The notes below the pieces were generated by a model. It ran no database searches and was not told the DNA's origin. It worked only from the letters and a program-made list of their open reading frames with translations. From Thermoplasmata archaeon (GTDB lineage Archaea > Thermoplasmatota > SW-10-69-26 > JACQPN01 > JAJPHT01), in assembly GCA_034667685.1 (NCBI GenBank), contig JAXDQU010000002.1, positions 1 through 39,539 on the forward strand: DNA of 39,539 nucleotides. The letters run 5' to 3'. Positions within the stretch are counted from its first letter, which is position 1; every line of letters begins with the position of its first letter. Position numbers and translations under genes: made by a program. Positions 221-39,539 of the stretch are shown here, in pieces.

Positions 221-374
221 GCGTGGATGCGTAAAGAACGGGTTTGGCCAAGGTGGGCACCCCGCTTAACGCTGCCGGCATCACTCTGGCAACCGTCGAA
301 TGGCGCTTTTTCTCGGGGAAACGGCCCGCGAGTCTCGCGGATCGGCGGTTGCCGAATCGACGCGCGCCGTGATA

Positions 375-869
375 TCAGGCGACCCGGAACGGGACCTCGG
401 CGAGCAGGCCGTCGCCCAGCGTGAAGCGCGCGACGTAAGCGCCCGGCGGCGCGGCGCGCGTGCCCTCCTTGCCCGCGAGCTGGCCGTCCCACGTCCACGC
501 CGCGGAAAGGCTGGCGCCGGGCGCGAACGACGCGCTGCCCTGGGCGGCGGGGCACGAGCGGTCCGCGCTCACGTGCGGCGATTGATAGCGCCAGACCTGC
601 GTGCCCTGGAGCACGGCGACGTCGAGCCCGTTCTTGCCGCAGCCCACCTGCGCGACCTGGATCGCGCTCTTGCAGTTGTTGGTCACGTTGACCGAGAGCG
701 TCGTGGGCGTCCCGGGCGTGACGGGATCGGGCACCACCGTCGCGCCCACGTAGAGGCAGGCGGGAAGCGCCGCGGGCCCCGCGGTGGCCTCGTTGCTGCG
801 CCAGGGGATGGTGCAGCCCGCCAACAGCGTCGAAGCGAGCAGGAGCGTCACGATCGCCCGGGTCGGCAT
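375..869 (-). CDS. Lipoprotein with Ig-like (BsuPI-like) domain
   Basis: MPTRAIVTLLLASTLLAGC lipobox; beta-rich LSVNVTN...WRY...WTWDG...PGAYVARFTL pattern. Start moved to ATG 869. Confidence 0.75.
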   Translation of the reverse strand: MPTRAIVTLLLASTLLAGCTIPWRSNEATAGPAALPACLYVGATVVPDPVTPGTPTTLSVNVTNNCKSAIQVAQVGCGKNGLDVAVLQGTQVWRYQSPHVSADRSCPAAQGSASFAPGASLSAAWTWDGQLAGKEGTRAAPPGAYVARFTLGDGLLAEVPFRVA

Positions 870-972
870 GGGCGGCGTTCCGCCGAGCCAGGCTTGCCCC
901 TTCTGGGTCAAATGGGAGACCGTGCGCGCGGCGCTAAACGCGAGCTTCGCTCGCGGTCTGCGGGCTCCGGCA

Positions 973-1773
973 CTAGACGAGCCGCTCGGGGCACGCATCG
1001 CGCCGGGAGCAGCCGCGGCACTTGCCCGGGCGCTCGTGGTTGCGGTGGACGACGCCCGTCATGTCGGAGAGGCGCATCCGCAGCGAGGTCTCCAGAACGC
1101 GGTCGCGGAACTCGTCGGTGAAGGGGACCTCGAACGTGCGGTCCTGGTACTGGAGCACGCCGTGCGGCGGCCGGACGCCATAGTTCTCCTCGACGAGGAT
1201 GCAGTAGACGCCAAGCTGCATGAGGTGCGAGTCGTGCGGCGTCTCGGGCGTGCGGCCCGTCTTCAGCTCGACCGGGATGTAGTGCTCGTCGCGGCGCACG
1301 ATGTAATCCGGACGGCCCGAAAGCTCGTAACGCTCGGCGCGCAGCGTCTCGGCGGGCTTGTCCAGGTCGCTGTACGCGAGCTCGCCCTCGACGAGCCCCG
1401 CCTCCGCGACGACCTGGTTGGCCTCCTGCTCCTTGCGCATCGCGCGCAGCAGGAACGCGAGCGCCACGAAGAGCCACACGAGGCTCATCATGACCAGCAG
1501 CGTGTGGTACGCCCAATGCGCGTCGAGGAAGACGACCTCCAGCGCGAGCGTCATCGCGGACGCGGCCGTCAGCGCGAGGTAGAGCGCGATCCGGAGCGAC
1601 TCGTTGTGGTCCTTCAGGATGCGCCGCCAGAGCGCGATGCGCTGCCCGACCGCCGCGTGGTCCGACTCGCCGCGCGCCAGGACCTCGTCGGTGGACGCGA
1701 TGCCGCGGCGCGCGAGGGCCCAGCTGAGCGGGCAATAGACGTACCTCTCGACGTCCGCGGCGCTGTAGCCCAT
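973..1773 (-). CDS. cas4: Solo Cas4-like RecB/PD-(D/E)XK nuclease with Fe-S cysteines and two inserted TM helices
   Basis: N-terminal YCP, GESDH, GRPD, VELK and QLGVY motifs; C-terminal C-x2-C-x5-C; two hydrophobic helices after the GESDH motif. Start ATG 1773. Confidence 0.85.
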   Translation of the reverse strand: MGYSAADVERYVYCPLSWALARRGIASTDEVLARGESDHAAVGQRIALWRRILKDHNESLRIALYLALTAASAMTLALEVVFLDAHWAYHTLLVMMSLVWLFVALAFLLRAMRKEQEANQVVAEAGLVEGELAYSDLDKPAETLRAERYELSGRPDYIVRRDEHYIPVELKTGRTPETPHDSHLMQLGVYCILVEENYGVRPPHGVLQYQDRTFEVPFTDEFRDRVLETSLRMRLSDMTGVVHRNHERPGKCRGCSRRDACPERLV

Positions 1774-1847
1774 CGGTCCAGCTTCCGGTCTCCTAGGGCT
1801 TGAATCCGATGGGGACCGGACTCGCGGCATTCCGACGGGGCTCTGCG

Positions 1848-1934
1848 GGGCTCTGGGCTCAGGACTCTGGACTCCGGGCTCTCCGGAGCAGAGCAGCCGG
1901 GAGCCCCGAGTCCACAGTCCTGAGCCCCGAGCCC
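1848..1934. repeat. Long inverted repeat built from heptamer units (GGRCTCN)
   Basis: Left arm gggctct gggctca ggactct ggactcc gggctct ccgg pairs with right arm ccgg gagccc cgagtcc acagtcc tgagccc cgagccc; stem about 38 bp. Confidence 0.85.
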
Positions 1935-1939
1935 TGTGT

Positions 1940-3517: not shown

Positions 3518-3939
3518 GCGCCATCGGGCGCGGGCTCGTCGGACGGGAGCGGCGCCCCCGGCAGCGCCACCACCCGCGGCGCGCCGATGCCCCCCGGCGC
3601 TCGCAGCACGAGCACGCGTCCCTGCGCGTCCTCGACGAGCGCGCCGTCGCCCTCCTCGCCGCGGTAGTCGCTCACCACGGCGTCGGGGCGCTCGTCGCGG
3701 ATACGCGCCAGCTCGCGGCGCCATGCGGCGGCGGAGGCGCCCTGCATCACGGCGAACGGGACGGCCAGCAGGCAGAGGACGATCGCCGCGCCCGCGAGCC
3801 AGACGGCGTTCTTGTGCCCGTTGTCCGGGCGCGCGACCTCGCGGAACGAGCCGCGGTCGTAGGCGTAGAGCAGGCCGGACGCGACGAAGACGAGCGCCAC
3901 CAGCAGGGCGGCGACGGCATTCCGGTCCATTGGCCTCAC
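3496..3939 (-). CDS. Membrane protein, 2 TM
   Basis: Two hydrophobic helices. GTG start overlaps the dys stop (alternative ATG 3930). Confidence 0.7.
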   Translation of the reverse strand: MRPMDRNAVAALLVALVFVASGLLYAYDRGSFREVARPDNGHKNAVWLAGAAIVLCLLAVPFAVMQGASAAAWRRELARIRDERPDAVVSDYRGEEGDGALVEDAQGRVLVLRAPGGIGAPRVVALPGAPLPSDEPAPDGAHALAMS

Positions 3940-5003
3940 GCGTGCTGGCGGATGGGCTTGAGCTCGTCGCCCTCGTAGTCGAGCGCGAGGCGCTTGCGGT
4001 TCTGCCAGAGGTGCTTCTTCTGGATCAGCGCCGTGGCGAGGAGCGGAAGCGCGACCGTGATATCAACGTGCGCCTGCACGAAGTCCGCGTCCTTGGCGAT
4101 CTTGCCCCACGACTGCGCCTCCTTGAAGGTGCAGCCCGAGAGCGCGCCCCAGTCGGGCATGTCCATCGTGAGCTGGATCGCGTACTGGTGGCCGCCCGCC
4201 TCGTGCCCCAGCACCTCGGAGATGACCTCCGTCTGCTGGATGTAGTTCTTCGGCACGCCGCCGCCCAGGTAGATGATGCCGGTCTTCTCGGACTTGTACT
4301 TGACCTGCGCGAGCTCGTAGGCGTCGCGGATCATGTCGAGCTTCGGGTACGGCTTGCCCGTGGCCTTCGCCTTCGTGTAGTTGTAGATCATGCCGATCCC
4401 GATGCTGCTGTCGTGGATCGTCGGCACGAAGATGGGGACCTTCTGGCGCGCGGCCTCGGCGACCCACGAGTCCTGGTCCTTGGCGAAGTGCTCGCCGAAG
4501 AACGTCATGATCTCGCGCGTCGAGTACGTGCGCGCCGGGTCGAGCTTCGCCACGAGGCCGCCCAGGTAGTCGTCCGTCTCGCGGAACTTCTCCTCGTCGA
4601 CGATGGTGTCGTAGAGGCGGTCGAGGAAGTGCTCGCGCAGCTCCAGGTCGTCGACCTCCGGCGCGGCGCGCCAGAAGTTGTAGCCGCGCGCGGCGTACAT
4701 GTCCTGGTAGGGCTGCGAGCCCACGGTGACGATGACGTCGACGAGCTTGTGGCGGATCAGGTCGCGCAGGACCTTGCGCTGGCCGCCCGCCATGAGCGAG
4801 CCCGCCACGCCCAGGATGATCGTCGGGCGCGAGGGGTCCTGGAGCATGTTCTCCCAGACCTGGAGCGCGGTGCCGAGGTTGCGCCCCTGGAAGCTGATGT
4901 TCTTGAACGCGTCCATCAGCTCGGCGACGCTCTGGATCTTCGAGGGCTCGAACTGCGTGATGGGCGTGTTGAGCCAATCCGACTTCTTCGTGCGGGGCGC
5001 CAC
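3936..5003 (-). CDS. dys: Deoxyhypusine synthase
   Basis: SFQGRNLG, LGGGVPKNYIQQ and GALSGCTFKEAQSWGKI (active-site Lys). GTG 5003 follows a GGTG RBS. Confidence 0.95.
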   Translation of the reverse strand: MAPRTKKSDWLNTPITQFEPSKIQSVAELMDAFKNISFQGRNLGTALQVWENMLQDPSRPTIILGVAGSLMAGGQRKVLRDLIRHKLVDVIVTVGSQPYQDMYAARGYNFWRAAPEVDDLELREHFLDRLYDTIVDEEKFRETDDYLGGLVAKLDPARTYSTREIMTFFGEHFAKDQDSWVAEAARQKVPIFVPTIHDSSIGIGMIYNYTKAKATGKPYPKLDMIRDAYELAQVKYKSEKTGIIYLGGGVPKNYIQQTEVISEVLGHEAGGHQYAIQLTMDMPDWGALSGCTFKEAQSWGKIAKDADFVQAHVDITVALPLLATALIQKKHLWQNRKRLALDYEGDELKPIRQHA

Positions 5004-5160
5004 GGGAGACACCTGACGGGCCGCGCGAGGGGCCGGACGTTCAAGAAGGTTTGCCCCTCGTCCCGTCCTGAGCGGACTCCCGCTCGTGGCGACCGAGGCC
5101 ATCAGCGCGCCGAACTGCAGCGTGACGCCGCCCAGATAGGTGCCGTCCGGTCGCCGCTCC

Positions 5161-6190: not shown

Positions 6191-6874
6191 ATGATGACGG
6201 CGAAGGTCGTCCCGATCCCGCTGGGCTTCGTGAACGCCTACCTCGTGCTCGACCGGCGCGCGGTCCTCGTCGACGCGGGCGAGCCGGGCCGCGAGACGCG
6301 CATCCTGGAGGCGGTGAAGGCGGCGGGCGTCGCGCCGCGCGACCTCGCGCTGATCTTCCTCACCCACGCGCACACGGACCACGTCGGGAGCGCCGCCGCC
6401 CTGCACCGCGAGACGGGCGCACCCCTGGCAATCGCCGAGCCGGACGCCACCTACCTGCGCGAGGGGCGCAGCGCGCCCGTCGTCCCGCGCGTCGCGGTGA
6501 TGAAGCTCCTCGCGGGCGTGATCGCGCGCCGGCCGGGCCCGCCCGCGGCCGAGCCCGCGCGGGTGCTCGCGGGCGAGACGAGCCTCGCGGAGTTCGGCGT
6601 CGCGGGCCGCGCCCTCCCGACGCCGGGCCACACGAAGGGCTCCGCGACGCTGCTCCTGGACTCGGGCGAGGCGCTCGTGGGCGACGCGATGAACGGCGGG
6701 ATGCCCTTCCCGCGCGGGCGGCCCGGCCGGCTCGTCATCGCCGAGGACGTGGAGCAGGCGCGCGCAAGCCAGCGATTGATATCGTCGAAGAATCCGACGC
6801 GCGTCTTCGTGGGGCACGGCGACCCGCGCGGGTTCACCGGCGCGCAGGTGCGGGCGTTCGTGGCGAGATCTTGA
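6191..6874 (+). CDS. MBL-fold metallo-hydrolase
   Basis: LVDAG, THAHTDH, TPGHT, VGD and GHG motifs. Confidence 0.92.
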   Translation: MMTAKVVPIPLGFVNAYLVLDRRAVLVDAGEPGRETRILEAVKAAGVAPRDLALIFLTHAHTDHVGSAAALHRETGAPLAIAEPDATYLREGRSAPVVPRVAVMKLLAGVIARRPGPPAAEPARVLAGETSLAEFGVAGRALPTPGHTKGSATLLLDSGEALVGDAMNGGMPFPRGRPGRLVIAEDVEQARASQRLISSKNPTRVFVGHGDPRGFTGAQVRAFVARS

Positions 6875-8133: not shown

Positions 8134-8784
8134 ATGGCGACCGGCTTCACGGCGCTCGATATCATCGTCGCGGCGGCCGCGCTCGTCGTCGCGGTCTGGT
8201 TCCTCGTCGCGTGGCGCCGCCTGGGCGAGCCCGCCCTGCTGCTCTTCGCCGTGGGCCTCGCGCTCAAGGGCGTCGGCTACGGCGTCGCGGGGCTCGCCGA
8301 CCCGGTGAGCAGCCGGCCCGCCAGCGCGTTCGACCTAACCCGCATCGGCGTCCTCTTCGTGGGCAACCTGCTCATGGTGAGCGCGTACCTCGGCGGCCGT
8401 CGGCAGCGCGCCTGGCTCCTCGCCGGCTGGATCGTCGCGGGCGGCGCGGCGCTGCTCGTCGCGATCGACCTGGTCGTGCCGCCCCTGGGCAGCGTCGACC
8501 TCCAGGTGGCGTCCATCGTCTCCGCCAGCATCATCGCCGTCGCCAACGTCGCCTGCGCGGTCTTCGCGGCGCATGGCTTCCGCGCCTCGCCCTCGGCGGG
8601 CCGCGCGCTCGTCCCCACGGCCTTCCTCTTCTGGGGCCTCTCGAACTACACGGGCCTCCTCATCGTGCTGGGCTCGCCCTCGTGGCTCCACGTCCTGGTC
8701 CAGCTCTGGCGCCTCGTCGCGGTCGTGCTCATGCTGGGCGCGCTCGTGCTTCCCCGCGGAGGTGCCGGCCCTGCCAAGGCGTGA
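8134..8784 (+). CDS. Polytopic membrane protein (about 7 TM)
   Basis: Seven hydrophobic segments; overlaps the downstream wHTH gene. Confidence 0.8.
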   Translation: MATGFTALDIIVAAAALVVAVWFLVAWRRLGEPALLLFAVGLALKGVGYGVAGLADPVSSRPASAFDLTRIGVLFVGNLLMVSAYLGGRRQRAWLLAGWIVAGGAALLVAIDLVVPPLGSVDLQVASIVSASIIAVANVACAVFAAHGFRASPSAGRALVPTAFLFWGLSNYTGLLIVLGSPSWLHVLVQLWRLVAVVLMLGALVLPRGGAGPAKA

Positions 8785-9743: not shown

Positions 9744-10529
9744 ATGGACGCCCTCGACCTCCCGCACTACGACGTCGGCCCGCGCGACGCGCTGCCCGTC
9801 GTGCTGCTGCACGGCTTCCCGCTCGACCACGCCATGTGGGCGCCGCAGAAGGCCGCGCTCCAGGAGGCCGGCCTCCGCGTGATCGCGCCCGACCTGCGCG
9901 GGCACGGGCGCGCGCCGGTGGGGCACGGGCCCGCGACGATGCAGGCGCACGCGGCCGACGTGCTGCGCCTGCTCGACCGCGTCGGCGTCCGGCGCTTCGC
10001 GCTCGCCGGCTTCAGCCTGGGCGGGTACGTCGCCTTCGAGGTCGCGCGGCAGGCGCAGGCGCGCGTCGTGGGCCTCGCGCTCGTCGACACGCGCGCGGAG
10101 CCCGACTCGCCCGAGGCGCGCGAAGGGCGATATCAAACGGCGGCGCGCGTCCGCGCCGGGGGCGTCGCCCCCGTCGTCGAGAGCATGCTGCCCAAGATGC
10201 TCACGCCTCGCGCCGACCCGACGCTGCGCGCGCAGGTCGAGCGCACGATGCGCGCGACCCCGCCCGAGGGCGCGGCGCAGGCGCTCGAAGGCATGGCGGA
10301 GCGCCCCGACTCGCGCCCGGCGCTGGCCGCGATCCGCATCCCCACGCTCGTCGTCGTGGGCGACCAGGACCCGATCGCGCCGCCCGACGCGGCGAAGGCG
10401 ATGGCCGACGCGATTCCCGGCGCGCGCCTCGTGGTCGTCCCCGGCGCGATGCACCTCACGCCGCTGGAGAAGCCGGCCGAGGTCGACGCCGCGATGGTGG
10501 CGTGGGCGAAGTCGATCAGGCCGTGGTGA
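9744..10529 (+). CDS. Alpha/beta fold hydrolase
   Basis: LLHGFP, DLRGHG, GFSLG nucleophile elbow, GDQD and a C-terminal His. Confidence 0.93.
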   Translation: MDALDLPHYDVGPRDALPVVLLHGFPLDHAMWAPQKAALQEAGLRVIAPDLRGHGRAPVGHGPATMQAHAADVLRLLDRVGVRRFALAGFSLGGYVAFEVARQAQARVVGLALVDTRAEPDSPEAREGRYQTAARVRAGGVAPVVESMLPKMLTPRADPTLRAQVERTMRATPPEGAAQALEGMAERPDSRPALAAIRIPTLVVVGDQDPIAPPDAAKAMADAIPGARLVVVPGAMHLTPLEKPAEVDAAMVAWAKSIRPW

Positions 10530-19500: not shown

Positions 19501-19670
19501 CCCCGTCGGCCGCGAGACCCGCGTTGGGCTTAAGGAGTACGCAAAGGGGCCGCGGGCGGGGACCATTCCGGTGGAGCGGGTGCTTCTTGCGCTGCGCCGC
19601 CGATCGCGCGGCGCGCAGAACGTCGCCCCCGCGCGTGGGTTGAAGTAGGGCCTCCGACCAAGCCTCCCGC

Positions 19671-26000: not shown

Positions 26001-28117
26001 TGCCGCTTCTTGCATGCGGGGCAGGCGCGCTCGCCGACCTCGATCTCGATGGGGCCGGCCTTCATCGCGTCGCCCAGGAGGCGTTGCGGGCCGCCGGCGA
26101 TGCTGATCGGGAAGAGCAGGTGGACGGGCGGGTTCATCTTGCGCTCGGCGGCCTTCTCGGGGCGGCCCATGCGCGTGCCGATGCGGTAGATGCCGCGCGG
26201 ACGGATGGGGAAGCCGGCGAGGTGCGCGGCATAGTGCGTCGGGCCCTCGGGGCCCCCGTCGAGCGGCGCGCGGCGCACGATCCGCTCGTCCTGCACGTCG
26301 AGGCCCAGGCCGCGCAGCATGGCGTAGGCGTGGCGGCCGAACCTCACGTCGTCGAACGCGGAGTCGTTGAGCGCGCCAAGCTCGGTGATGATATCACGGA
26401 GCGCGCGCTTGCCCGCGGTGGGGTCGGCGCTCTCCAGGGCCTTCTTCGGCAGGAGCAGCATGTCCTCCGCCCAGCGGCCGTGCTCCTCGGCGAAGCGCGA
26501 CAGGGCCTGGATGTCCTCGATCGAGAGGTCGTGCCAGAAGAGGTTGTAGCGCGGCGCGAGCGGCGTCTGCGTGCGCTCGGCGAAGAGGACCGCGTCGCGG
26601 GCCGTCGGAAGCTCGGGCGGCGCGGCGCCGGTGGCCTTCCGCACGGTCTGCCGCCACCACTCCTCGCACCACGGGGATTGCGGGAGCGTCTTGTTGTTCT
26701 CGGCGAACTCGCCGTAGGGCACGAGGATCTCGCCGAGGTCGACGACCTGGCGCACCTGCGGGCGGAGCTGCTTCGCCATCTTGTACGACGTGACCTCGAC
26801 GAGGCTGCCGTTCGCCAGCAGCACGAGGGGCGGCTCGATGCTATCACACGGCGTCGTCGCGGTCGCCTTGCCGGGGCGCTCGATCTTCATCTGCGTGCCC
26901 GGCGCCAGGAAGTCGTCGCAGAGCGCCATGGCCGCTGGGTGGATCGCGGTGGTCGCGAGCCCGCCGGTGCGCGCGCGGCCGTAGCGCAGGCGCCAGCCCC
27001 CCTTGCGCGAGGGGTGCGCGAAGACGGGGCGTCCCGCGATGAGGTCGAGCATGAACTTCGCGCTGGGCTCGATGGCGCCGCGCGGCGCGTCGGCGTCCTT
27101 GGCCCACGGGTCGGTGAACTTCTTGCCGCCGTGCGCCTCGTCCTTCCCGCCGCCGGCCGCCTTCTTCTTGACGTAGTCGATGACCTGGTCGATGAACTCC
27201 CAGCCGTCGAGCTTGAGCGCCCTCACGTTCTTCTGGATCTTGGGCGCCTTCTGCGTCATGCCCTCGGCGAGGACGAGGCACGCGCCGCCGCGGATCTGGT
27301 TCGTCGTGAGGCGCGGCAGGTCGCGGTTGCCGCCGATCTCATCCTTCTCCGTGCCCTCGCCGTCGATCATGACGGGGCAGCTGCGCATGATGAGCTCGAT
27401 CTCTTCGTTGCTCGGCGTGTACTGGAGGTTCGCCGCGGCCCTGTACGCGGGGATCTCCTCCTTCATGCGCGAGATCTCCTTCTCGGTCGCGACGTACTTG
27501 CCGATGCCCAGCGCGCGGCGCACCACGTCCGCGATGAGCACGCTGAGCGCCTGGCCCGTGCCGCCCGCCGCGCGGATGGGGCCCGCGAAGACCAGCGCGC
27601 AGCAGTCGGTGCCGTCGTCGTTCTTCAGCAAGCGGACGCCGGCGATCCCTTCGAGCGGCGCGACGAGGATGCCCTCGGTGAGGATCGCGAGCCCCGTGCG
27701 CACGGCCTGGTCGAGCGCCTTCTCCTTGTCGTCGAACGTGCCGAACTTGCCGGCCGCGACCTCGTTGGCGACGATGAGCGAAAGCTCCTCGCGGTTCTTC
27801 TCCTTCGAGAGATCGCGGATGCGCTGCGCGACGCCCTTGGGGCCGACCAGCTCCTCGACGCGCGCCGCGAGGTCGATGGCCGGCGGGATCTCGACGCGCG
27901 TCTCCGGGTCGAACCCCTTCTCGCGGCACAGGCGAGCCAGCTCGTACTCGCGGCGCATGCGGCTCTCCAGCGCGGCGAAGTAGCGCTCCATCTCCTCGGA
28001 CGCGCCGCGGCCCGAGGGAATGGCGACCTCCGGCGGCTCGAAATCGAAGTCGTCCGCCTCATCGGGCTCCTCCTCCTGGAGGGGGACTGCGTCGTCGAAA
28101 TAGCCGACCGAGCCCAA
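23072..28117 (-). CDS. polC: DNA polymerase D large subunit DP2 (intein-containing)
   Basis: AILTEGILVAPLEGI, FAGPIRAAGGT, RMGRPEKA, APHTSGG, KRRN|CDGDED, RGGLMDAPL and a C-terminal Zn finger. Confidence 0.98.
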   Translation of the reverse strand: MGSVGYFDDAVPLQEEEPDEADDFDFEPPEVAIPSGRGASEEMERYFAALESRMRREYELARLCREKGFDPETRVEIPPAIDLAARVEELVGPKGVAQRIRDLSKEKNREELSLIVANEVAAGKFGTFDDKEKALDQAVRTGLAILTEGILVAPLEGIAGVRLLKNDDGTDCCALVFAGPIRAAGGTGQALSVLIADVVRRALGIGKYVATEKEISRMKEEIPAYRAAANLQYTPSNEEIELIMRSCPVMIDGEGTEKDEIGGNRDLPRLTTNQIRGGACLVLAEGMTQKAPKIQKNVRALKLDGWEFIDQVIDYVKKKAAGGGKDEAHGGKKFTDPWAKDADAPRGAIEPSAKFMLDLIAGRPVFAHPSRKGGWRLRYGRARTGGLATTAIHPAAMALCDDFLAPGTQMKIERPGKATATTPCDSIEPPLVLLANGSLVEVTSYKMAKQLRPQVRQVVDLGEILVPYGEFAENNKTLPQSPWCEEWWRQTVRKATGAAPPELPTARDAVLFAERTQTPLAPRYNLFWHDLSIEDIQALSRFAEEHGRWAEDMLLLPKKALESADPTAGKRALRDIITELGALNDSAFDDVRFGRHAYAMLRGLGLDVQDERIVRRAPLDGGPEGPTHYAAHLAGFPIRPRGIYRIGTRMGRPEKAAERKMNPPVHLLFPISIAGGPQRLLGDAMKAGPIEIEVGERACPACKKRQITYRCDACGAHTEMVRRKEGERIEPRPVEIAPLVEAAMERLKLEDSPDAVKAVVGLISKSKSPEPIEKGLLRAKHNLFTFKDATVRFDMINITLTHFKPREAHVSVERLKELGYLFDIKGDPLVHDQQILEIKVQDIIVSTSCLDYMLRASQYVDELLVKLYGYKPYYNCKKIEDLYGHLFVALAPHTSGGVLCRIIGHTRAQGHYGHPFFHASKRRNCFRGDTEVVVLREGRVEKTRLDALVAPAIAQRGRALDGHGTRVAEPDEPLEILSLDPATMAPRRLRVTKLIQGTTRSWIDVETSTHRRITVTLDHRVLVRREGRLLHVPASEVAPGDQVPVAMSLPRETSSPTFELGALLADLPEAATLRLRDAEPFLRALLARVGRERVEELCGATPAQRRIPSRWLRSFPLTHYAALARAGLAEWREIPAEARLAFARDDTSMPVRVPATRDLCWLLGFYLAEGYARSTRSAHQVSWRVPEPTLRARLVRVIQETFGREPAVEEESKVTLPSRIAYLLLAKVWKAGEGAHEKRVPAWCYGLPDALVASLVAGYFDGDGSAFVEPPRLRLYSANRALLEDFATLLQSQGIFARFVPGEPREPGSFLRARYEALGRPPPETLGPVDALSLYGADIKAFAALVEPAHPEKASRLAALLENVKPTRVIQVEGRRFDPEEGAHHLFDRVLRVARREASDEPTYCLDVDSGSDDLLTRNVLLGNGLYQIRCDGDEDCVMLLLDGLLNFSRVYLPSNRGGLMDAPLTLTMRLDPSEVDKEAHNVDTMFEYPLEFFEATLAHPGPKDVEKMIDMVAKRLGKPSQYEGFGFTHDTADIAEGPEMSAYKTIGSMMDKMTAQLELAARIRAVDAPDVAARVIGSHFLPDMMGNLKAFSKQAMRCTKCNTKYRRIPLTGKCRKCGNANLTMTVHEGSVKKYLEVSKEVCVRFDVSEYVQQRIEHVSDSIDSVFTNDRVKKAKLSDFF
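23828..25345 (-). mobile_element. Intein with LAGLIDADG homing endonuclease in DP2 (506 aa)
   Basis: Starts CFRGDT after KRRN; block B TLDH; LLGFYLAEG and LVAGYFDGDG; block F TYCLDV; ends NGLYQIR before CDGDED. Confidence 0.93.
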
Positions 28118-28561: not shown

Positions 28562-30246
28562 ACCACATCGCCCGGGTTCGCGATCTTCTCGGGCTGGCGG
28601 AAGGCGCCGCCGAACGCGGTCTTCCCGACGACGTCCACGCCCGCGGGCTTGCCGCGGTGGAAGTCCACCATGTAGGGCTTGCCCGTGTCCAACTCGATGA
28701 CGGGGACCTTCGCCGGCTCGGGCATGAAGCCGTGCATCTTCTGGTACGCCGTCTGGCTCTGCCAGCACGAGGCGTTGATGAGCGTGATGCCGCGGTAGCT
28801 GTCGAGCCCCGCCGCGTGCACGTGCCCCGTGACGAAGACGTCGGGCACGCTGTCGATGGTGAGGTAGTCCTTGTGCTCGGGCGCGATGGGCGTGCGCAGG
28901 CCGTACACCGGGACCATGTGCCGGCGCACCACCATCTCCTTCATCGCGTCGATGGGGCGCTCGTAGCTCATGCCGGCGACGCGCGTGATCCAGTCGTCCA
29001 TGCTGCGGCCGTGATAGCTCAGGATCTCGACGCCTTCGATGGAGAGCTTGCACGGGTTGCCGATGTGGCGCACGCTCTCGGGGAAGAGCCGCGTGTATTT
29101 CTCGGGGAGCGCGGGCTGCGGCTCGGCGGGCCGCACGAGGTCGTGGTTGCCCGGCATCACCATGATCTTGATATCATCGCGGATGCGCGCGAGCTGCTCG
29201 CCGGCGTACCGGTACTGCTCGTACGCGTCGACGATCGCCAGCTCCTCCTCCTGGCCCGGGAAGATGCCGATGCCGTCCACGACGTCGCCGTTCACGACGA
29301 GGTACTTCACCTTCCGCGCCAGGGCTTTCATGCGCGAGTCGCCCCAGTCGAGGTTGATCCAGCGCAGGAAGCGCTCCCAGTCCTCGTGCAGGAACGTCTT
29401 CGCGCCGAAGTGGACGTCGCTGAGGATCGCGACGGCGGCCGCGTGCGCGCTGCGCCGCGCCTGCCCCGCCATCGGGACGTCGGGGCGCACGATGTGCTCC
29501 AGGATCAGCAGGTCGCCGCGGCCGGGCGGCTTCGCCACGACGCCGATGACCTCGTCCTCGATGACGGTGTCCGTCTCCACGAGCAGGTTCGCATCGCTCG
29601 CGGGCGCCAGGAGCGCGACGCTGCCGGTCTCGTCCTCCAGCTCCAGCAGGCGGTGGCCGTTCTTCGTCGTGCGGATCTCCGTGACGATGCCGATGAGCTG
29701 GATCTTCGCCAGGCCGCCGGCCCGCGCCCGCGAGATGGGCACCGCGCCGCTGACCTCGCGGCGCTGCTTGAGCATCTTGCGGATCTTCCCGAGCCGGTCG
29801 TTGAAGTAGCGCGTGAAGTCGGAGATCGCGCCCTCGCACGTCGAGTTGCCCGTCACGTCGGCGAGCACGTCGATCTGGTGCGCGTACGGCTCCATCAGGC
29901 GCGGGCGCGGGGGCAGCGGGCCGCCCTTGGCCTTGAGCTTCGCCTCGACCTTGGGCTCTTCGAGCACGAGGCCCCGCGTGTCGGGCGTGAACGGCGCGAC
30001 GACGGGGGGAGGCGAGGGGAGGCTGGGGGCGGCGACGGGAGGCTGTGGGAGGACGAGGGGGGCGGCCGGGAGGACCTGCGCGGGCTGCCGCGGGGCGGGC
30101 TCCAGGTCGGCGAGCGTGACGAGGAAGGGAAGCTCGGCGCGCGCCAGCAGCCTCTCGCCCAGCGCGGGCTCCTTCTCCAGGCGGGCCGCGGCGTCGGGCG
30201 CCAGCAGGCTGCCGCGCTTCAGGAGCTCCGCGAGAAGGGACTGCAC
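28558..30246 (-). CDS. polB: DNA polymerase D small subunit DP1 (3'-5' exonuclease)
   Basis: OB-fold region plus SDVH, GDVVDG, PGNHD, YHG and GHVH phosphoesterase motifs. Confidence 0.97.
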   Translation of the reverse strand: MQSLLAELLKRGSLLAPDAAARLEKEPALGERLLARAELPFLVTLADLEPAPRQPAQVLPAAPLVLPQPPVAAPSLPSPPPVVAPFTPDTRGLVLEEPKVEAKLKAKGGPLPPRPRLMEPYAHQIDVLADVTGNSTCEGAISDFTRYFNDRLGKIRKMLKQRREVSGAVPISRARAGGLAKIQLIGIVTEIRTTKNGHRLLELEDETGSVALLAPASDANLLVETDTVIEDEVIGVVAKPPGRGDLLILEHIVRPDVPMAGQARRSAHAAAVAILSDVHFGAKTFLHEDWERFLRWINLDWGDSRMKALARKVKYLVVNGDVVDGIGIFPGQEEELAIVDAYEQYRYAGEQLARIRDDIKIMVMPGNHDLVRPAEPQPALPEKYTRLFPESVRHIGNPCKLSIEGVEILSYHGRSMDDWITRVAGMSYERPIDAMKEMVVRRHMVPVYGLRTPIAPEHKDYLTIDSVPDVFVTGHVHAAGLDSYRGITLINASCWQSQTAYQKMHGFMPEPAKVPVIELDTGKPYMVDFHRGKPAGVDVVGKTAFGGAFRQPEKIANPGDVV

Positions 30247-32843: not shown

Positions 32844-32907
32844 GCGCCACGGCTGCGCGCGCGAGGGCCTTTTGTGGTCCTCGCGCGCTGCGGCACGCGG
32901 GCACACC

Positions 32908-33108
32908 ATGCGGACCCCCCTTCTCATCGCCGCGATCCTTCTCGTCTCGACCTTCACGCTCGTCGCCACGGCGCCGTCGGCCTCGGCCTGCACGCCGCCC
33001 AACTGTCCGGGCTTCGGCGGCTGCCACCTGACCAAGCCGACGTACGACGTCGACCCCGAGAGCGCCACCGTCACGCTCACGCCGCCGCACATGGAGTGCT
33101 ACTACTGA
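32908..33108 (+). CDS. Small secreted Cys-rich protein (66 aa, 4 Cys)
   Basis: Signal ending PSASA; CTPPNC...CHLT...ECYY. Confidence 0.75.
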   Translation: MRTPLLIAAILLVSTFTLVATAPSASACTPPNCPGFGGCHLTKPTYDVDPESATVTLTPPHMECYY

Positions 33109-33118: not shown

Positions 33119-33490
33119 ATGCGGACCCTTCCCCTTCTCGTGAGCCTCGCGCTCCTCGGCGGCTTCGTCCTCGTCCTCTCGCCCGCGGCCGATGCCTGCG
33201 TCGCCACGCCCTCGTGCTTCGGCGGCCCCTGCCAGGTCACGTACGGCAGCACGGATGATATCGTGGGCGACCCCGCCCTCAACGTGCGCTACCCGAACGG
33301 CGTCGAGTGCGTCTCCAGCGGGATCAACCCGCCCTGCCACGTGACGTGGCGCCAGGTCTACCTCGACATGGACCACGCCACCGACGTCCCCGACGGCGTG
33401 GAGTGCGTCTCGTGCCACGTCACGGGTCACTACGTCTACCTGGACATGGACCACCCGACGTTCGTGCCCGACGGCGTCGACTGCTCCTGA
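33119..33490 (+). CDS. Secreted Cys-rich protein with three C-x-VT...P[ND]GV[ED]C repeats (8 Cys)
   Basis: GAGGTG RBS; signal ending PAADA; repeats 2 and 3 are also similar in DNA. Confidence 0.8.
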   Translation: MRTLPLLVSLALLGGFVLVLSPAADACVATPSCFGGPCQVTYGSTDDIVGDPALNVRYPNGVECVSSGINPPCHVTWRQVYLDMDHATDVPDGVECVSCHVTGHYVYLDMDHPTFVPDGVDCS

Positions 33491-34175: not shown

Positions 34176-34604
34176 TTGCGGCGCATCTGGACGATCGGCT
34201 ACGAGGGGCACGACCCCGAGAGCTTCACGCACGTCCTGCGCAAGGCCAAGGTCGAGCGCGTGGTTGATATCAGGGAGCTTCCGCTCTCGCGCAAGCGCGG
34301 CTTCAGCAAGGCGGCGATGGCGGCGGGGCTCGCGGCCGCCGGCATCGGCTACTCGCACCTCAGGGCGCTGGGGACGCCGCGCCCGCTGCGCCACGCGTAC
34401 AAGGCCGGCGGGAGCTTCGAGGCGTTCCGCGACGGATACCTCGGCCACCTGGAGGGCGTCGAGAGCGCCATCGGCCAGCTCGAACGGATGGCGCAGGAGG
34501 AGCGCGTCGCGATCCTGTGCGTGGAGCACGACGCCGCCGTCTGCCACCGCGGGGTGCTCGCGGGCGTGCTGAAGACGCGCGGCTGGAGCGTGACGGACCT
34601 CTGA
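34176..34604 (+). CDS. DUF488-family protein
   Basis: IWTIGYEG, VDIRELPLSRKRGFSK, GIGYSHLRALG and LCVEHDAAVCHR. TTG 34176. Confidence 0.9.
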   Translation: MRRIWTIGYEGHDPESFTHVLRKAKVERVVDIRELPLSRKRGFSKAAMAAGLAAAGIGYSHLRALGTPRPLRHAYKAGGSFEAFRDGYLGHLEGVESAIGQLERMAQEERVAILCVEHDAAVCHRGVLAGVLKTRGWSVTDL

Positions 34605-34610: not shown

Positions 34611-34811
34611 CTAGGGCCGCAGCCGCCCGTTGCGGTAGACGCCCTCGCCACGCAGCGCGACGCCGAACGTGAGCACGACGAACGCGCCCACGACGACGGC
34701 GAGGATCGCCGCGAGCAGCAGCGCCTCGGGGAACCCGCCCGGCGAGGCCGGCAGCGCCGAGGACTCCGCGGGCGACTGGTTCGCGAGCTGCGCCAGCACC
34801 GCGGATATCAT
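34611..34811 (-). CDS. Small single-TM protein
   Basis: One long hydrophobic helix; ATG abuts the upstream TGA. Confidence 0.6.
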   Translation of the reverse strand: MISAVLAQLANQSPAESSALPASPGGFPEALLLAAILAVVVGAFVVLTFGVALRGEGVYRNGRLRP

Positions 34812-35483
34812 TCAGACCCTCGGCATCCGTCCATAGACGCGGCGCGTCGGGTAGGCGGTCTCCTGGACGCGGCGCGCGTAGAGGGCGCCGGCCACGGCCG
34901 CCGCGATGGCGGAGGCCAGGACGCACGCGACGAGGAACAGGATTCCCGCGCTCGTCCCGAAGTAGCCCACCGTGCTGCCCCAGCCCGGGCGCCAGTAGAG
35001 GCCCACGGGCCAGTTGACGCGCGCGAGGTCGACGCCCGCCGCGTTCGCGCCGATGGCGTAGCCGATTGCCGTGAGGATGGCGAGCGCGAAGAGGCCGAAG
35101 AGCGTGCCCAGCGCGCCGCCGAGGGCGCCCTCGCCGGCGTTGCGCGTCCGCGTCCCGGCCCAGAACCCGCCCAGCGTCGCGAGCAGCGGCGCGCCCACGA
35201 GCGGAAGGAGCGCGACGAGGCCCGCGGCGCCCACGAGCGCGGCCTGCGCGGGATCGTTGAGGTTGACGCTCTTCAGCGCGAAGGCCGCGGAGTAGGCGAG
35301 GATCGCCACCGCGACGCCCAGCGCCACGAAGAGGCCGAAGACGCCCAGCCCGGCGCGCACCCAGTCGAGCCGGTCGCTCGCCTGCGTGGTGATATCACGA
35401 TCCGTGGCGAGCGTGCGCCCGCTCGCGGGGCCGCTCGTCCCCTGGAGGCGCATCGCGCGCTCCGCTTCCGTTTCCTCGAACAT
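34812..35483 (-). CDS. Membrane protein (about 4 TM)
   Basis: Hydrophobic helices from MFEETEAE (ATG 35483). Confidence 0.75.
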   Translation of the reverse strand: MFEETEAERAMRLQGTSGPASGRTLATDRDITTQASDRLDWVRAGLGVFGLFVALGVAVAILAYSAAFALKSVNLNDPAQAALVGAAGLVALLPLVGAPLLATLGGFWAGTRTRNAGEGALGGALGTLFGLFALAILTAIGYAIGANAAGVDLARVNWPVGLYWRPGWGSTVGYFGTSAGILFLVACVLASAIAAAVAGALYARRVQETAYPTRRVYGRMPRV

Positions 35484-36552: not shown

Positions 36553-36723
36553 TTGTCCATCCCACCGCGCAGGATCCCCGTCTTCGTGGGCGCGCAGGCG
36601 GAGTGCGCGCAGTGCGGCCGCGAGATCACGGACCCGTGGGCGCTGGAGGCGTTCGGCCGCTGGTGCTCCGCGCGCTGCTATCACGCGGCCGGGCTGCCGC
36701 CGTTGATGCGCCAGGCAGCCTAG
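36553..36723 (+). CDS. Small treble-clef/TRASH-like metal-binding protein
   Basis: CAQC-x16-CSARC; CTTATG box about 30 nt upstream of TTG 36553. Confidence 0.5.
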   Translation: MSIPPRRIPVFVGAQAECAQCGREITDPWALEAFGRWCSARCYHAAGLPPLMRQAA

Positions 36724-37021
36724 CCTTTCCGACGTACGCCTTCCGGAGCCGCCCGCCCTCGCGCCAGTACTTGTACGTGTACGGCCCGTGGAGCTGGCCG
36801 GCCCGGCAGCGGCAGTTCGTCTTGCCGCAGCGGATCCCCTCGGTGCGGAAGGTGTACGTGACGGGCTTGCCGCCGACCTCGGCCTGCAGGCTCGCCACGT
36901 GCCGCGCCTCGGCCTCCTCGGGCGTGACCAGGATGTCGTGGAGGAAGCGGGTCAGGTCCTCCTGGTCCTCGCGGGGGAGCGCGGCCAGCAGCGCCTTGAC
37001 GCGGTCGAGCGGCTTCTCCAT
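36626..37021 (-). CDS. DUF6788-like Zn-binding protein
   Basis: RCGKTNCRC..GQLHGPYTYKYWREGGRLRKAYVG motif. Confidence 0.8.
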   Translation of the reverse strand: MEKPLDRVKALLAALPREDQEDLTRFLHDILVTPEEAEARHVASLQAEVGGKPVTYTFRTEGIRCGKTNCRCRAGQLHGPYTYKYWREGGRLRKAYVGKARLPGASTAAARPRDSSARSTSGRTPPAPTGP

Positions 37022-37062
37022 CTTAGGTACGGGGTCGGCCAGGCCAAAGGCCGTACCTAAGA
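37021..37062. promoter_or_regulatory. Perfect 12-bp inverted repeat with 18-bp spacer, putative operator
   Basis: TCTTAGGTACGG ... CCGTACCTAAGA, touching the ATG of the DUF6788-like gene. Confidence 0.6.
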
Positions 37063-37134
37063 CTTGCGCTTCAACGGGCGAGTCCCCGGTCCGCCAACCT
37101 ATAAGAGAAAGACCCCGGAGAGCCAGGGGGCGCC

Positions 37135-38025
37135 ATGCCGGAGGCGCTCGTGAGCATCCAAGGTCTGGGCCGCCGCTACGGCGACCAGTGGGCCATCCGC
37201 GACCTGACCTTCGAGGTCCGCCGCGGCGAGATCTTCGGCCTGATCGGCCCGAACGGCGCGGGCAAGTCCACGACCATCAAGATCCTGGCCGGGCTGCTCG
37301 CCCCCACCGAGGGGCAGGCGATGGTCGGCGGGCTGCGCAGCGACGACCCGCGGCACAAGGCGCGCATCGGCTACCTGCCCGAGGAGAGCCCGCTCTACGA
37401 GGACATGACCGCGCTCGCCTACCTGCGCTTCTTCGCGCGCCTCTACGAGGTGCCCAAGGCCGAGGCGAACCGGCGCATCCACGCCGCGCTCGACGCGCTG
37501 GAATTGGACGCCGAGGCGCGCGAGAAGAAGAAGATCGGCGACATGAGCAAGGGCATGCGGCGCAAGGTCGCCATCGCGCGCTCGCTGGTCAACGACCCGG
37601 ACCTCGTCATCTACGACGAGCCGGCCAGCGGCCTCGACCCCGTCGCGTCGGCCTACATCCTCGACCTCGTGCGCGGCCTCGCCAAGCAGGGCAAGACCGT
37701 CGTCTTCAGCGCGCACAACCTGTTCCACATGGAGCGGATCTGCGACCGCGTGCTGATCCTGCGCCGCGGCGCCATCGTGGCCCAGGGCTCGATGAAGGAG
37801 ATCCGCGCCGCGACGCGCGGCACGCAGTTCGTGGCGACCGTCAGCGTCCCCATCCAGGGCGCCGCGCCCGGCGAGCACGGCTTCGAGACCACGCTGGAGA
37901 ACATCGAGGACGTCAAGGGCATCGAGGCGCGCGCGGTCGCGGCGGGCGGCCGGCTCGTGGACGTCCGCACGAAGGAGCTGACACTCGAAGAGATCTTCCT
38001 GCGCACCACCTCCGCGAAGGCCTGA
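37135..38025 (+). CDS. ABC transporter ATP-binding protein
   Basis: GPNGAGKST, MSKGM signature, YDEP and SAH; CTATAAG box near 37099. Confidence 0.96.
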   Translation: MPEALVSIQGLGRRYGDQWAIRDLTFEVRRGEIFGLIGPNGAGKSTTIKILAGLLAPTEGQAMVGGLRSDDPRHKARIGYLPEESPLYEDMTALAYLRFFARLYEVPKAEANRRIHAALDALELDAEAREKKKIGDMSKGMRRKVAIARSLVNDPDLVIYDEPASGLDPVASAYILDLVRGLAKQGKTVVFSAHNLFHMERICDRVLILRRGAIVAQGSMKEIRAATRGTQFVATVSVPIQGAAPGEHGFETTLENIEDVKGIEARAVAAGGRLVDVRTKELTLEEIFLRTTSAKA

Positions 38026-38029
38026 TCGC

Positions 38030-39539
38030 ATGGGCTCGCTGCGCCGCATCGCCAACATCGCCTTCGCCGAAGGGTTCCGCACCGGCGGCTCGTTCAGCAA
38101 GAAGTCGAGCCTCGCGCTCCTGGCGATCGGCGTGCTCACCGCGCTCCTGGTCCCCCAGCTTCTCCACAACGGCCTCGACTTCGACCGCGGGCTCTACCGC
38201 GTCGCGGTGGTCGAGGGCTCGCCGCTCCTGCCCGCGGTCGAGGGCTCGCGCCTCTTCCGCGTCGTGCAGGCCGATCCCGGGACGGCCGTGGAAAGCGGCG
38301 CCGCCGACCTCGCGATCCTCGACGGGCGCATCGACGCGATGGAGGGGGCGAAAGGCGAGGCCGCGATGGCCGCGCTCCGGCAGGCCGCGAAGGACTACAC
38401 CTTCACCCAGCTCGCGCAGGAGCAGGACCAGGGCGCCGCGTTCCCCGTGCGCGTCGAGCTGACCTACGCCCAGCAGGCGCGCGCCGGCAACGCGGCCGCG
38501 CTCCCCTCGCTCCCCGCCCAGCAGGCCCCCACGCCGAGCGAGCCCAGCCCCTCCCCGTCCGGCTCGGGCACCGTGACCGGCTCGGGTGGCACGGCGAGCG
38601 CGGCGCCGCCCGGCGGCAGCACGGGAGGCTTCGACTTCCTGCCCCAGGAGCGCAGCGTCAACACGCCCGAAACGCTATCACCGCCGTTCCCGTTCCGCTC
38701 GCTGCTCCTGGCGTACGCGTTCCTGATCCCGATGAACTTCGTCGTGCAGGTCTACGCCGGCAGCGCGATCGGCGAGCGCCTCGGAAGGAAGGGCGAGGCG
38801 CTGCTCGCGAGCCCCGCGCGCCCCTGGGAGATCATCGTGGGCAAGGCGCTGCCCTACTTCGCGCTCATGATGGCCGTGTGCGCGGGCATCGTCCTCGTGA
38901 TCCACGGCGGCTGGCTCTCGCTGGTCGCGGTGATGCCGCTCGCCTACGCCTTCCTCGCGCTGGAGTTCGTCGCCGCGATGTTCGCGCGCAGCTTCCGCGA
39001 GCTGACGTTCCTCACCGTCTTCACGAGCGTCATGCTAACGATCTACGCGTTCCTGCCCGCGGTGTTCACCGAGGTCCACCCGATCGCGCTGATCTCGCCC
39101 ATCTCGCTCGTGGTCATGGACCTGCACCACGATCCCGTGACGTGGGGGCAGATCCTCTACGCGACGGTGCCGCTGACGCTCTTCAGCACGATCCTCTTCG
39201 TGCTCGGCGCCGCGCTCTACACCGAGGAGGACCTCTTCCACCAGAAGCCCGTCATGGCGAAGGCCGTGGACATGCTCGCGCGCCAGGTGCGCAGCCTGGG
39301 CAGCGCGATCAAGGTCCAGCTCATGCTCATCGCGTGCGTGCTCGTCGTCGAGCTGCTGCTCATGACGTTCCTCTTCGCGTGGCCCGTCCCGGTGGGCACG
39401 CTGGGCATCCTGCTCGCCGTCGCGCTCTGCGAGGAGACGTTCAAGGGCCTGCCGAGCTACGCGGCGCAGACGCGCGGCGCGATCCCGACCCGGCGCGCGG
39501 TGCTCTTCGGCGCGCTCGCGGGCCTCGGCTTCTTCCTCG
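38030..39539 (+). CDS. ABC-2 type permease fused to PrsW-like intramembrane protease domain (partial, runs off window)
   Basis: Open frame from MGSLRRIA; PFPFRSLL...ERLGRKGEALLASP permease loop; EETFK and GLGFF PrsW-like motifs near the end. Confidence 0.8.
   Translation, partial: MGSLRRIANIAFAEGFRTGGSFSKKSSLALLAIGVLTALLVPQLLHNGLDFDRGLYRVAVVEGSPLLPAVEGSRLFRVVQADPGTAVESGAADLAILDGRIDAMEGAKGEAAMAALRQAAKDYTFTQLAQEQDQGAAFPVRVELTYAQQARAGNAAALPSLPAQQAPTPSEPSPSPSGSGTVTGSGGTASAAPPGGSTGGFDFLPQERSVNTPETLSPPFPFRSLLLAYAFLIPMNFVVQVYAGSAIGERLGRKGEALLASPARPWEIIVGKALPYFALMMAVCAGIVLVIHGGWLSLVAVMPLAYAFLALEFVAAMFARSFRELTFLTVFTSVMLTIYAFLPAVFTEVHPIALISPISLVVMDLHHDPVTWGQILYATVPLTLFSTILFVLGAALYTEEDLFHQKPVMAKAVDMLARQVRSLGSAIKVQLMLIACVLVVELLLMTFLFAWPVPVGTLGILLAVALCEETFKGLPSYAAQTRGAIPTRRAVLFGALAGLGFFL

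Follow-up and report, generated by a model that had tools for sequence, protein, structure and literature searches.

The stretch of DNA analysed here (the window; 39,539 nucleotides, positions 1-39539 of contig C2) comes from the draft genome G000 and carries repeated copies of TGATATCA, a palindromic octamer that is its own reverse complement. We consider it very likely that this octamer is a highly iterated genomic word of one genus of high-GC soil archaea with the look of Thermoplasmatota, and that repeat elements, peptide motifs and codon usage do not account for it. A roughly constant directional force of about 100-200-fold over the local baseline acts on this 8-bp double-stranded word. 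This force began in or near the ancestor of the genus and is still operating.

The draft genome consists of 3.48 Mb in 124 contigs, the largest of 167 kb, with an estimated completeness of 99%. Its GC content is 0.711 (71.1%) and that of stretches of the window ranges from 0.68 to 0.74; the first-pass annotation of this DNA assumed about 72%. Open reading frames (ORFs) were called with a crude caller based on the GC content of third codon positions (GC3), which returned 2678 ORFs amounting to 77% of the genome. Copy counts of TGATATCA were taken across 41 genomes, and protein families were searched across 15 genomes, namely the own genome, four congeners (G001-G004) and ten outgroups. For the comparison with the nearest relative, G003, 1.09 Mb of that genome was used, 704 kb of which aligned to G000 at 80.9% nucleotide and 78.6% amino-acid identity.

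Genome-wide, TGATATCA is present in 378 copies (109 per Mb), where Markov models of orders 0, 1, 2 and 3 expect 4.0, 3.1, 2.0 and 11.0 copies, and at order 2 it is the most deviant 8-mer of the genome. The variant TGCTATCA (173 copies) and its complement TGATAGCA (156 copies) add 329 further sites, so that the strict sites total 707. Synonymous codons were shuffled within each ORF over 30 rounds, a procedure which preserves the protein sequence and the codon usage of each gene and which is conservative because the word's own codons stay in the codon pools. Under this shuffle 4.5 ± 2.3 copies of TGATATCA (maximum 9) were obtained in ORFs against 265 observed, while TGCTATCA fell from 192 to 7.2 and TGATAGCA from 62 to 0.8. 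Out of 391 GAT-ATC dicodons, 248 also have a T before and an A after them, T being found otherwise at about 4% of third positions, and therefore Asp-Ile codon usage cannot explain the full 8-mer. Conditioned on the encoded amino acids, the excess is about 80- to 120-fold in most contexts and above 1000-fold in two contexts composed of two very rare codons; in the two open frames it amounts to 115-fold and 1100-fold. Among the rare codons concerned, CTA makes up 0.8% of the Leu codons and TCA 1.9% of the Ser codons of the genome. The excess thus persists when amino acids are preserved, and it extends well beyond the window into the whole genome and into the other four genomes of the genus, all of which are enriched. 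The idea of the first-pass annotation, a selected or driven genome-wide signal at the level of DNA, is therefore supported. The three functions that it suggested (a chromatin site, a methylation-linked palindrome, an uptake or recombination signal) are still the leading candidates.

The genome carries the word in every permitted frame and on either strand, over stop codons as well as in non-coding sequence. In the frame T GAT ATC A (any residue followed by Asp-Ile and a codon starting with A) it occupies 248 of 564 contexts (44%), and after Asp-Ile the residues with such A-starting codons (Thr, Ile, Lys, Asn, Met) reach about double their expected frequency. The reading NTG ATA TCA (L/M/V-Ile-Ser) carries the word in 17 of 251 contexts, NTG CTA TCA (L/M/V-Leu-Ser) in 156 of 949 (16%), T GAT AGC A (any residue followed by Asp-Ser and an A-starting codon) in 58 of 458, TGC TAT CAN (Cys-Tyr-His/Gln) in 28 of 30 and CGA TAT CAN (Arg-Tyr-His/Gln) in 35 of 131. 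In the third frame TGA would be a stop codon, and it is precisely at stops that this frame is used: TATCA follows 24 of 1603 TGA stops, among them the window site at 370, and is the third commonest 5-mer in this position. Some 34 perfect copies are located where coding periodicity is missing, at a density close to that in coding DNA. The word is not a peptide motif or a translational signal, and its presence in all these readings as well as in non-coding DNA indicates that it is recognised as double-stranded DNA.

The tolerance of the word for substitutions is narrow. Among its 24 one-letter variants only the change from A to C at position 3, which gives TGCTATCA/TGATAGCA, is strongly enriched. 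Variants at the end positions are next in abundance (CGATATCA and TGATATCG, 82 copies each), positions 2 and 7 are practically invariant with 0-2 copies per variant, and variants at positions 4 and 5 barely exceed the amino-acid-conditioned expectation (TGACATCA in frame b, 31 against 19; TGAGATCA, 11 against 10.5). The double variant TGCTAGCA is found at background, with 3 copies in total and 1 in about 5000 compatible coding contexts. Since the CTAG contained in it is avoided only 4-fold, which is too little to cancel a 100-fold enrichment, it seems that one half-site at least must be perfect. The half-sites TGAT and ATCA are enriched together at zero spacing only (378 copies against 0-38 at spacings 1-12), which rules out a spaced arrangement; at spacings 1-12, as in everted and direct repeats of the half-sites, nothing but codon periodicity was seen. 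Hexamer cores GATATC with other flanks are not enriched either, CGATATCG having 42 copies where 24-61 are expected and GGATATCC 12 where 7.5-24 are expected. The 707 strict sites lie in 705 distinct 20-mers, and such unique flanks show that the word is the whole unit and not the core of a longer repeat. A dispersed repeat of the repetitive extragenic palindrome (REP) or miniature inverted-repeat transposable element (MITE) type is ruled out by these flanks and by the location of the copies, 264 of 378 being in called ORFs and 57 more in coding-like sequence. The counts of the asymmetric variant on the two strands (173 and 156) show no strand skew of the Chi type.

Enrichment is confined to one genus among the 41 genomes searched. 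There are 378 copies of TGATATCA in G000, 111 in G001, 141 in G002, 210 in G003 and 53 in G004, as compared to 2, 3, 5 and 2 copies (0.6-1.6 per Mb) in four other genera of the family and 0-9 copies in order- and class-level relatives. Enrichment across the phylum was considered and rejected; three genomes (G030, G032 and G037) are rich in matches but have only 40-53% GC and observed/expected ratios of at most 2.4, so that their copies are accounted for by composition. The variant pair TGCTATCA/TGATAGCA, with strands summed, has 72 copies in G001, 229 in G002, 151 in G003 and 63 in G004, and 5 in the outgroup G007. We found no open-access paper describing TGATATCA as an iterated word, and the earlier remark that no archaeal equivalent has been described holds for the open-access literature searched, iterated palindromes and uptake sequences included. 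As a separate observation, the variant exceeds the perfect form in G002 (229 against 141) and G004 (63 against 53), while the reverse is seen in G000, G001 and G003, and this shift of the ratio among congeners hints at dialects.

The alignment to G003 shows how the sites have arisen. Among 121 sites of G000 that align without gaps, 25 are shared and 96 are found in G000 only. These 96 sites have 3.16 differences within the 8-mer as compared to 1.34-1.58 per flanking 8-mer, and the changes at them comprise 150 transitions and 153 transversions. The changes are thus point substitutions restricted to the 8-mer, with neither insertions nor wider conversion tracts. An origin by CpG deamination, which was hinted at by a single site (CGACGTCG against TGATATCA), is not supported by the balance of transitions and transversions in the full sample. 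Of the 80 G000-only sites in coding sequence, 31 differ synonymously only and 49 also in amino acid, and the codons spanned by the word have a higher rate of amino-acid difference than the flanking codons (28.9% against 18.3%; p = 1.7e-4). The commonest replacements, V>I (13), L>I (8), E>D (7) and A>S (7), each lead toward a residue that the word encodes.

At 58 conserved contexts of Asp-Ile followed by an A-starting codon, the word is shared by both genomes in 12 cases, restricted to G000 in 11 and to G003 in 1, and missing from both in 34 (Fisher p = 1.5e-5). Of the G003 sites, 12 of 13 are kept in G000, whereas among 350 single rare GAT codons at conserved Asp positions only 150 are kept (p = 4e-4); the sample is small and comes from one genome pair. 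These results indicate that a site, once it has arisen, is preserved, and that new ones have continued to accrue in G000. The occupancy pattern of G000 is repeated in G003 at lower levels, for example in 32 of 120 Asp-Ile contexts.

Along the genome the 707 strict sites are spaced as in a Poisson process, with a coefficient of variation of the gaps of 1.0, a median gap of 2812 bp (2841 bp expected) and a mild lack of gaps shorter than 100 bp (5 against 14 expected). At least one site is present in 440 ORFs, where the Poisson model predicts 448. Within ORFs TGATATCA and TGATAGCA are distributed uniformly and TGCTATCA leans mildly to the 3' half (Kolmogorov-Smirnov p = 0.005). Operator-like clusters upstream of a regulator were looked for and discarded as a possibility, since the 14 pairs of sites less than 200 bp apart are all scattered and 12 of them lie wholly inside called ORFs. 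The most codon-biased ORFs (GC3 >= 0.97) are sparser in sites, with 1.36 against 2.4 per 10 kb. Despite the AT-rich composition of the word, low-GC DNA is poor in sites, with 0.36 per 10 kb at GC 0.62-0.66 as compared to 2.2 at GC 0.71-0.73, and two contigs are significantly poor, C118 with 7 sites against 16.5 expected and C42 with 3 against 12.7. Depletion in recently acquired islands, proposed earlier as a check, is thus seen in the probably acquired low-GC DNA. The low-GC, motif-poor interval C118:30000-45000 (L233) encodes a DUF499 protein (936 aa), an unannotated ORF (473 aa), a DUF1156 methylase-like protein (1055 aa) and a helicase of the SNF2/ResIII type that carries a NOV_C domain (1134 aa), with a DDE transposase adjoining; from its gene content it looks like an acquired defence module.

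In the window itself, the heptamer GMTATCA searched on both strands gave 26 strand matches, which represent 19 distinct sites and reproduce those of the first-pass annotation at every position (Table 1). The expectation for the heptamer is 1.54 (maximum 5); the earlier rough estimate was about 2. All seven full palindromes were likewise recovered, and 100 dinucleotide shuffles of the window gave 0.06 (maximum 1), where the earlier estimate was far less than one. The two related sites were also found, and the statement that copies force rare codons is correct for the CTA TCA at 38675-38680 in a plus-strand ORF and for the one in the minus-strand helicase-like ORF near 18650. The proposed density of one site per 2 kb is right for the 7-mer in the window (19 per 39.5 kb); genome-wide, the strict 8-mers occur once per 4.9 kb.

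Table 1. Sites of the word and its variants in the window, with their reading and their state in other genomes and records.
Sequence	Positions	Strand	Reading or context	Other genomes and records
TGATATCA	370..377	palindrome	last 3 bases are the TGA stop (minus-strand reading) of minus-strand ORF 375-998	
CGCTATCA	583..590	-	CGC TAT CAA (Arg-Tyr-Gln); looser variant	
TGATATCA	4058..4065	palindrome	GTT GAT ATC ACG (Val-Asp-Ile-Thr), minus-strand ORF 3939-5351	
TGATATCG	6777..6784	+	TTG ATA TCG (Leu-Ile-Ser); end-position variant	
CGATATCA	8157..8164	+	CTC GAT ATC ATC; end-position variant	
CGATATCA	10128..10135	+	CGA TAT CAA (Arg-Tyr-Gln); context with the word in 35/131 cases genome-wide	
CGATAGCG	13049		related site	
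TGATATCA	17844..17851	palindrome	CCT GAT ATC AGC (Pro-Asp-Ile-Ser), helicase-like ORF 17575-19566 (minus)	
CGCTATCA	18646..18653	-	TCG CTA TCA (Ser-Leu-Ser), helicase-like ORF; two rare codons	
CGCTATCA	23122..23129	+	minus-strand reading ATT GAT AGC GTC	relatives: CGCTGTCG, TGCTGTCG, TGGAGTCG or CGCTCTCG
TGATATCA	26389..26396	palindrome	CGT GAT ATC ATC (Arg-Asp-Ile-Ile)	nearest relative: CGACGTCG (Asp-Val-Val)
TGCTATCA variant	26839..26846	+	minus-strand reading TGT GAT AGC ATC	same in G002 only; TGCTGTCA or TGCTGTCG in G001, G003, G004; outgroup G007 TCGTGTCG
TGATAGCT	29012..29019	+	minus-strand reading AGC TAT CAC	identical in 5/5 genus members; outgroup G007 TGGTAACC
TGATATCA	29169..29176	palindrome	GAT GAT ATC AAG	stepwise series: G007 TCAGGTCC, G003 TCACGTCG, G002 and G004 TGATGTCG, G001 TGATATCG, G000 TGATATCA; covered by identical contig of independent soil study (X2 record 4)
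TGCTATCG	32206		related site	
TGATATCG	33256..33263	+	GAT GAT ATC GTG; end-position variant	
TGATATCA	34265..34272	palindrome	stretch without called ORF	G001 and G003: CGACGTGC
GGATATCA	34803..34810	+	end-position variant, stretch without called ORF	
TGATATCA	35390..35397	palindrome	stretch without called ORF	
TGCTATCA variant	36676..36683	+	minus-strand reading CGT GAT AGC AGC (Arg-Asp-Ser-Ser)	
CGCTATCA	38673..38680	+	ACG CTA TCA (Thr-Leu-Ser)	common to G003; G004 CGCTCTCG

DNA near-identical to the window is present in soil metagenome runs, and contigs from an independent soil study (run X2) are letter-identical to it and span several motif sites. Among 40 of the about 1990 variant positions in these data, none lies inside a motif site. 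The best matches of the CDC48-type ATPase of the window are in archaeal metagenome-assembled genomes labelled Methanobacteriota (80%) and Thermoplasmatales (75%). High-GC soil Thermoplasmatota are known, an example being the Lutacidiplasmatales with about 69% GC (PMC9287336). A public record of 22 kb titled 'Proteobacteria bacterium' (L001) encodes a CDC48 that is 97% identical to the archaeal protein of the window. Its gene order matches that of the window, at 82-92% nucleotide identity, and the record probably represents the species of G003 under a wrong label. At 31085-33040 and 36953-37604 the summed depth of soil-run contigs is 10-100 times that of the rest of the window. The first of these intervals is AAA domain 2 of the CDC48-type ATPase and the other a conserved nucleotide-binding part of ORF 37135-38022, and the excess depth comes from contigs of other organisms.

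Other words of G000 also deviate from expectation. CTAG is the most avoided palindrome (768 copies, observed/expected 0.23), and several 6-bp palindromes are low as well, with observed/expected ratios of 0.10 for TACGTA, 0.27 for AAGCTT and 0.31 for both CAGCTG and CTCGAG; this avoidance is suggestive of present or past restriction systems. Over-represented words include GTAGTAG/CTACTAC (224 and 162 copies, about 10-13 expected), TCTAC/GTAGA, ACTAC/GTAGT and GGGGGGGG (125 copies, 38 expected). The GTAGTAG-type words and GGGGGGGG may be linked to the avoidance of CTAG or to a peptide repeat.

For the force that has spread the word we put forward a mechanism which, taken as a whole from the iterated word through its reader and the fixation bias to a role in exchange, we hold only tentatively. 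A symmetric, dimer-like protein would read the word as double-stranded DNA; it would need one perfect half-site TGAT and would tolerate TGCT or, more weakly, CGAT in the other half. Variants creating the word would be preferentially fixed with an effective bias of about ln(100-200), which would override codon bias and push conservative amino-acid replacements. The source of this bias may lie in the molecular-drive logic of bacterial uptake signals, which is now also proposed for cyanobacterial HIP1. In the least certain step, the word would mark 'own' DNA in exchange or recombination between cells of the genus. Such a self-tag is the reading that we prefer, though we hold it no more than tentatively and a shade less securely than the statement as a whole. 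A more specific form, that a genus-specific protein recognises TGATATCA at DNA import or homologous recombination, so that word-bearing DNA is preferentially acquired or kept by a machinery unrelated to ComEC/DprA, appears doubtful. If this specific form is true, TGATATCA would count as the first 'self' word in the DNA of an archaeon, with a drive that has rewritten codons and conservative residues in about one sixth of the genes, and it would imply sequence-selective genetic exchange in uncultured soil Thermoplasmatota.

Several observations speak against this proposal. The flanks of the sites are no less diverged than the sequence elsewhere, and thus there is no sign of motif-linked recombination tracts; selection acting site by site would explain just as well why old sites are retained. 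ComEC (PF03772) was found in none of the 15 genomes, the own one included, and neither DprA (PF02481) nor Vsr was found in G000. Searches of the 15 genomes for the families PF12846 (AAA_10) and PF02534 (coupling protein) of the T4SS (type IV secretion system) kind gave weak matches at the level of the P-loop and no genus pattern. There is also an anomaly of Ala codons, the word being present in 8 of 867 contexts of T GCT ATC A and in 4 of 705 of NTG ATA GCA. Here the enrichment of one and the same double-stranded variant is 7-30 times lower than in the Asp-Ser and Leu-Ser contexts. This asymmetry, which is present in G003 too, is not predicted by a purely DNA-level model because such a model sees the same double-stranded sequence in either case. 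We know of no archaeal uptake signal and of no sequence-specific DNA uptake in archaea, and the uptake signals known to us are not palindromes. On the side of method, the crude ORF caller has missed some real genes, and the draft state of the genome in 124 contigs restricts the analysis of spacing to short range.

Another explanation links the word to methylation. The word, its GATATC core or the half TATCA would be the target of an orphan methyltransferase, and copies would be created and kept by a methyl-dependent repair bias, the ratchet that Elhai proposed for HIP1, or by selection for methylated sites. The form TGMTAKCA with its strict inner positions does resemble a Type II recognition site, AccI (GTMKAC) being a Type II enzyme with such a degenerate symmetric specificity. 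The genome also encodes the NucS mismatch endonuclease and stand-alone methyltransferases without an obvious nuclease neighbour, namely one of N4/N6 type at C106 and one of C5 type at C63. One-off variants of the word cluster at the first and last positions and at positions 3 and 6; Elhai reported the same bias to first and last positions for HIP1 (PMC4390886). However, none of the methyltransferases found in the four main families is specific to the genus. The D12 class (PF02086) is missing from all four congeners and gives in G000 only a 21.8-bit match, inside the low-GC island of C118. M.EcoRV belongs to this class. The N4/N6, N6 and C5 families (PF01555, PF02384 and PF00145) have orthologues also in sister genera that do not have the word. 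No genus signature was found in the variable regions of the two conserved stand-alone methyltransferases, the N4/N6 enzyme being equally conserved inside and outside the genus and the variable region of the C5 enzyme as divergent within the genus as outside it. Vsr was, as said, not found in the own genome, and a MutS-like gene (MutS_V) is family-wide among the 15 genomes searched. In addition, GATATC with other flanks is not enriched and the TGCTATCA variant has no GATATC at all. We therefore consider a methylation-linked origin unlikely. The family searches thus give no gene-level support for a methylation ratchet or for competence of the bacterial type; a changed specificity of a conserved protein or some other archaeal machinery may be at work. 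Apart from this question, the C5-type enzyme (C63:5379-6320; L234:2379-3320) has PCE in place of the usual PCQ catalytic motif, adjoins the DNA primase small subunit and has orthologues across the order in 9 further genomes sampled.

Similarly unlikely in our judgement is that the copies are binding sites of a chromosome-organising or nucleoid protein kept by ordinary selection for the structure or segregation of the chromosome, as in the reading of HIP1 by Xu et al. The half-site tolerance is like the binding-energy landscape of a dimeric protein: T is preferred over C, and C over G and A, at position 1, A and C are about equivalent at position 3 if the other half is perfect, and double variants are at background. 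Old sites are retained more than the control rare codons, coding and non-coding densities are similar, and the lower density in the most codon-biased genes is what a balance of cost and benefit would be expected to give. Against these points, the spacing is indistinguishable from Poisson at the scales accessible in the draft of 124 contigs, and no intergenic clusters or operator-like arrangements are seen. Each of about 700 redundant sites would need an advantage that outweighs codon bias and can alter residues, which is more easily achieved by drive, and no candidate protein was identified among the families searched.

A mutational bias, guided by a protein or specific to a context and without function, would turn near-matches into the word and make the copies neutral passengers. 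Such a bias would be compatible with differences confined to the 8-mer, with the enrichment of one-off variants and with the 7-fold range of copy number among congeners. However, it takes 2-5 changes to create a site, mixed between transitions and transversions, toward a single 8-mer, and we know of no mutational process with specificity for one 8-mer. A quick conversion of near-matches should deplete one-off variants, and no depletion is seen; moreover, 12 of 13 G003 sites have survived in G000, where third codon positions are under strong pressure toward GC. We consider this explanation very improbable. A trivial cause, that is Asp-Ile or other codon usage, a paralogous peptide motif, a MITE or REP element or an assembly artefact, could draw on the fact that GAT ATC is the reading of 248 of the 265 perfect copies within called genes, and is practically dismissed by the codon shuffle, the use of all allowed frames, both strands, stops and non-coding DNA, the distinct 20-mers, the five genomes of the genus and the contigs of the independent study.

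Hyper-abundant short words are rare, the well-studied ones being HIP1 and the uptake signals of two bacterial families, and what causes HIP1 has been under debate for three decades. The present word is an independent example from a different domain of life and has useful properties. Being AT-rich against a GC-rich background, it has almost no chance copies. Its onset is young enough that sister genera are still without the word, and the range of 53-378 copies within the genus forms a natural comparative system; the five genomes could be profiled against the sister genera for the responsible gene, and the force can be measured in amino-acid replacements. The word is, in addition, a sharp marker for binning the genus and for spotting recently acquired DNA.

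Among known systems, a restriction target shares with the word the Type II format of an 8-bp symmetric sequence with M/K degeneracy. Such targets are avoided, whereas TGATATCA is enriched more than 100-fold, and the avoided palindrome in this genome is CTAG. Chi is likewise an over-represented octamer and a possible 'self' marker for DNA ends, and its density in E. coli of about one per 4.5-5 kb is near that of the strict sites. However, Chi is asymmetric, strand-skewed with replication and far more weakly enriched, and a palindrome such as TGATATCA cannot carry orientation.

The likeness to the uptake signal sequences (USS) of Pasteurellaceae and the DNA uptake sequences (DUS) of Neisseriaceae is closer, with hundreds of copies, an excess of at least 100-fold, restriction to a clade and one-off variants in excess. 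Uptake signals are depleted in acquired DNA, as the word is in the site-poor low-GC DNA here. Frame preferences and effects on the proteome are shared as well, uptake sequences being described as co-evolving with proteomes (PMC2817400), and the perfect/variant ratios of the congeners hint at dialects. In contrast to USS and DUS, TGATATCA is palindromic and shorter (8 bp), and ComEC and DprA gave no match in the genomes in which they were searched.

HIP1 (GCGATCGC) is a palindromic octamer which is enriched 15-300-fold, conserved, as are its one-off variants, and spread by substitution without insertions or deletions (PMC5861425, PMC13756078). Its origin has been ascribed to a possible ratchet of methyl-directed repair (PMC4390886), and a recent study connects it with the efficiency of transformation and with the distribution of T4SS genes (PMC13756078). 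Both words are palindromic octamers enriched to the same order, present in coding and non-coding DNA and spread by substitution, with enriched one-off variants, retention between genomes above that of controls, a lineage-specific occurrence and a debated function. The two differ in that HIP1 is cyanobacterial, GC-rich, of phylum range and present about once per kb, whereas TGATATCA is archaeal, AT-rich in a genome of 71% GC, of one genus and present once per 5-9 kb, and among the families searched no methyltransferase was found whose distribution tracks it. The spacing of the HIP1 class is quasi-periodic at 10-90 kb, while that of TGATATCA is Poisson-like at short range, the largest contig being 167 kb. 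The word TGATATCA is thus an iterated word of the HIP/USS class and, as far as the open-access literature searched shows, the first in an archaeon.

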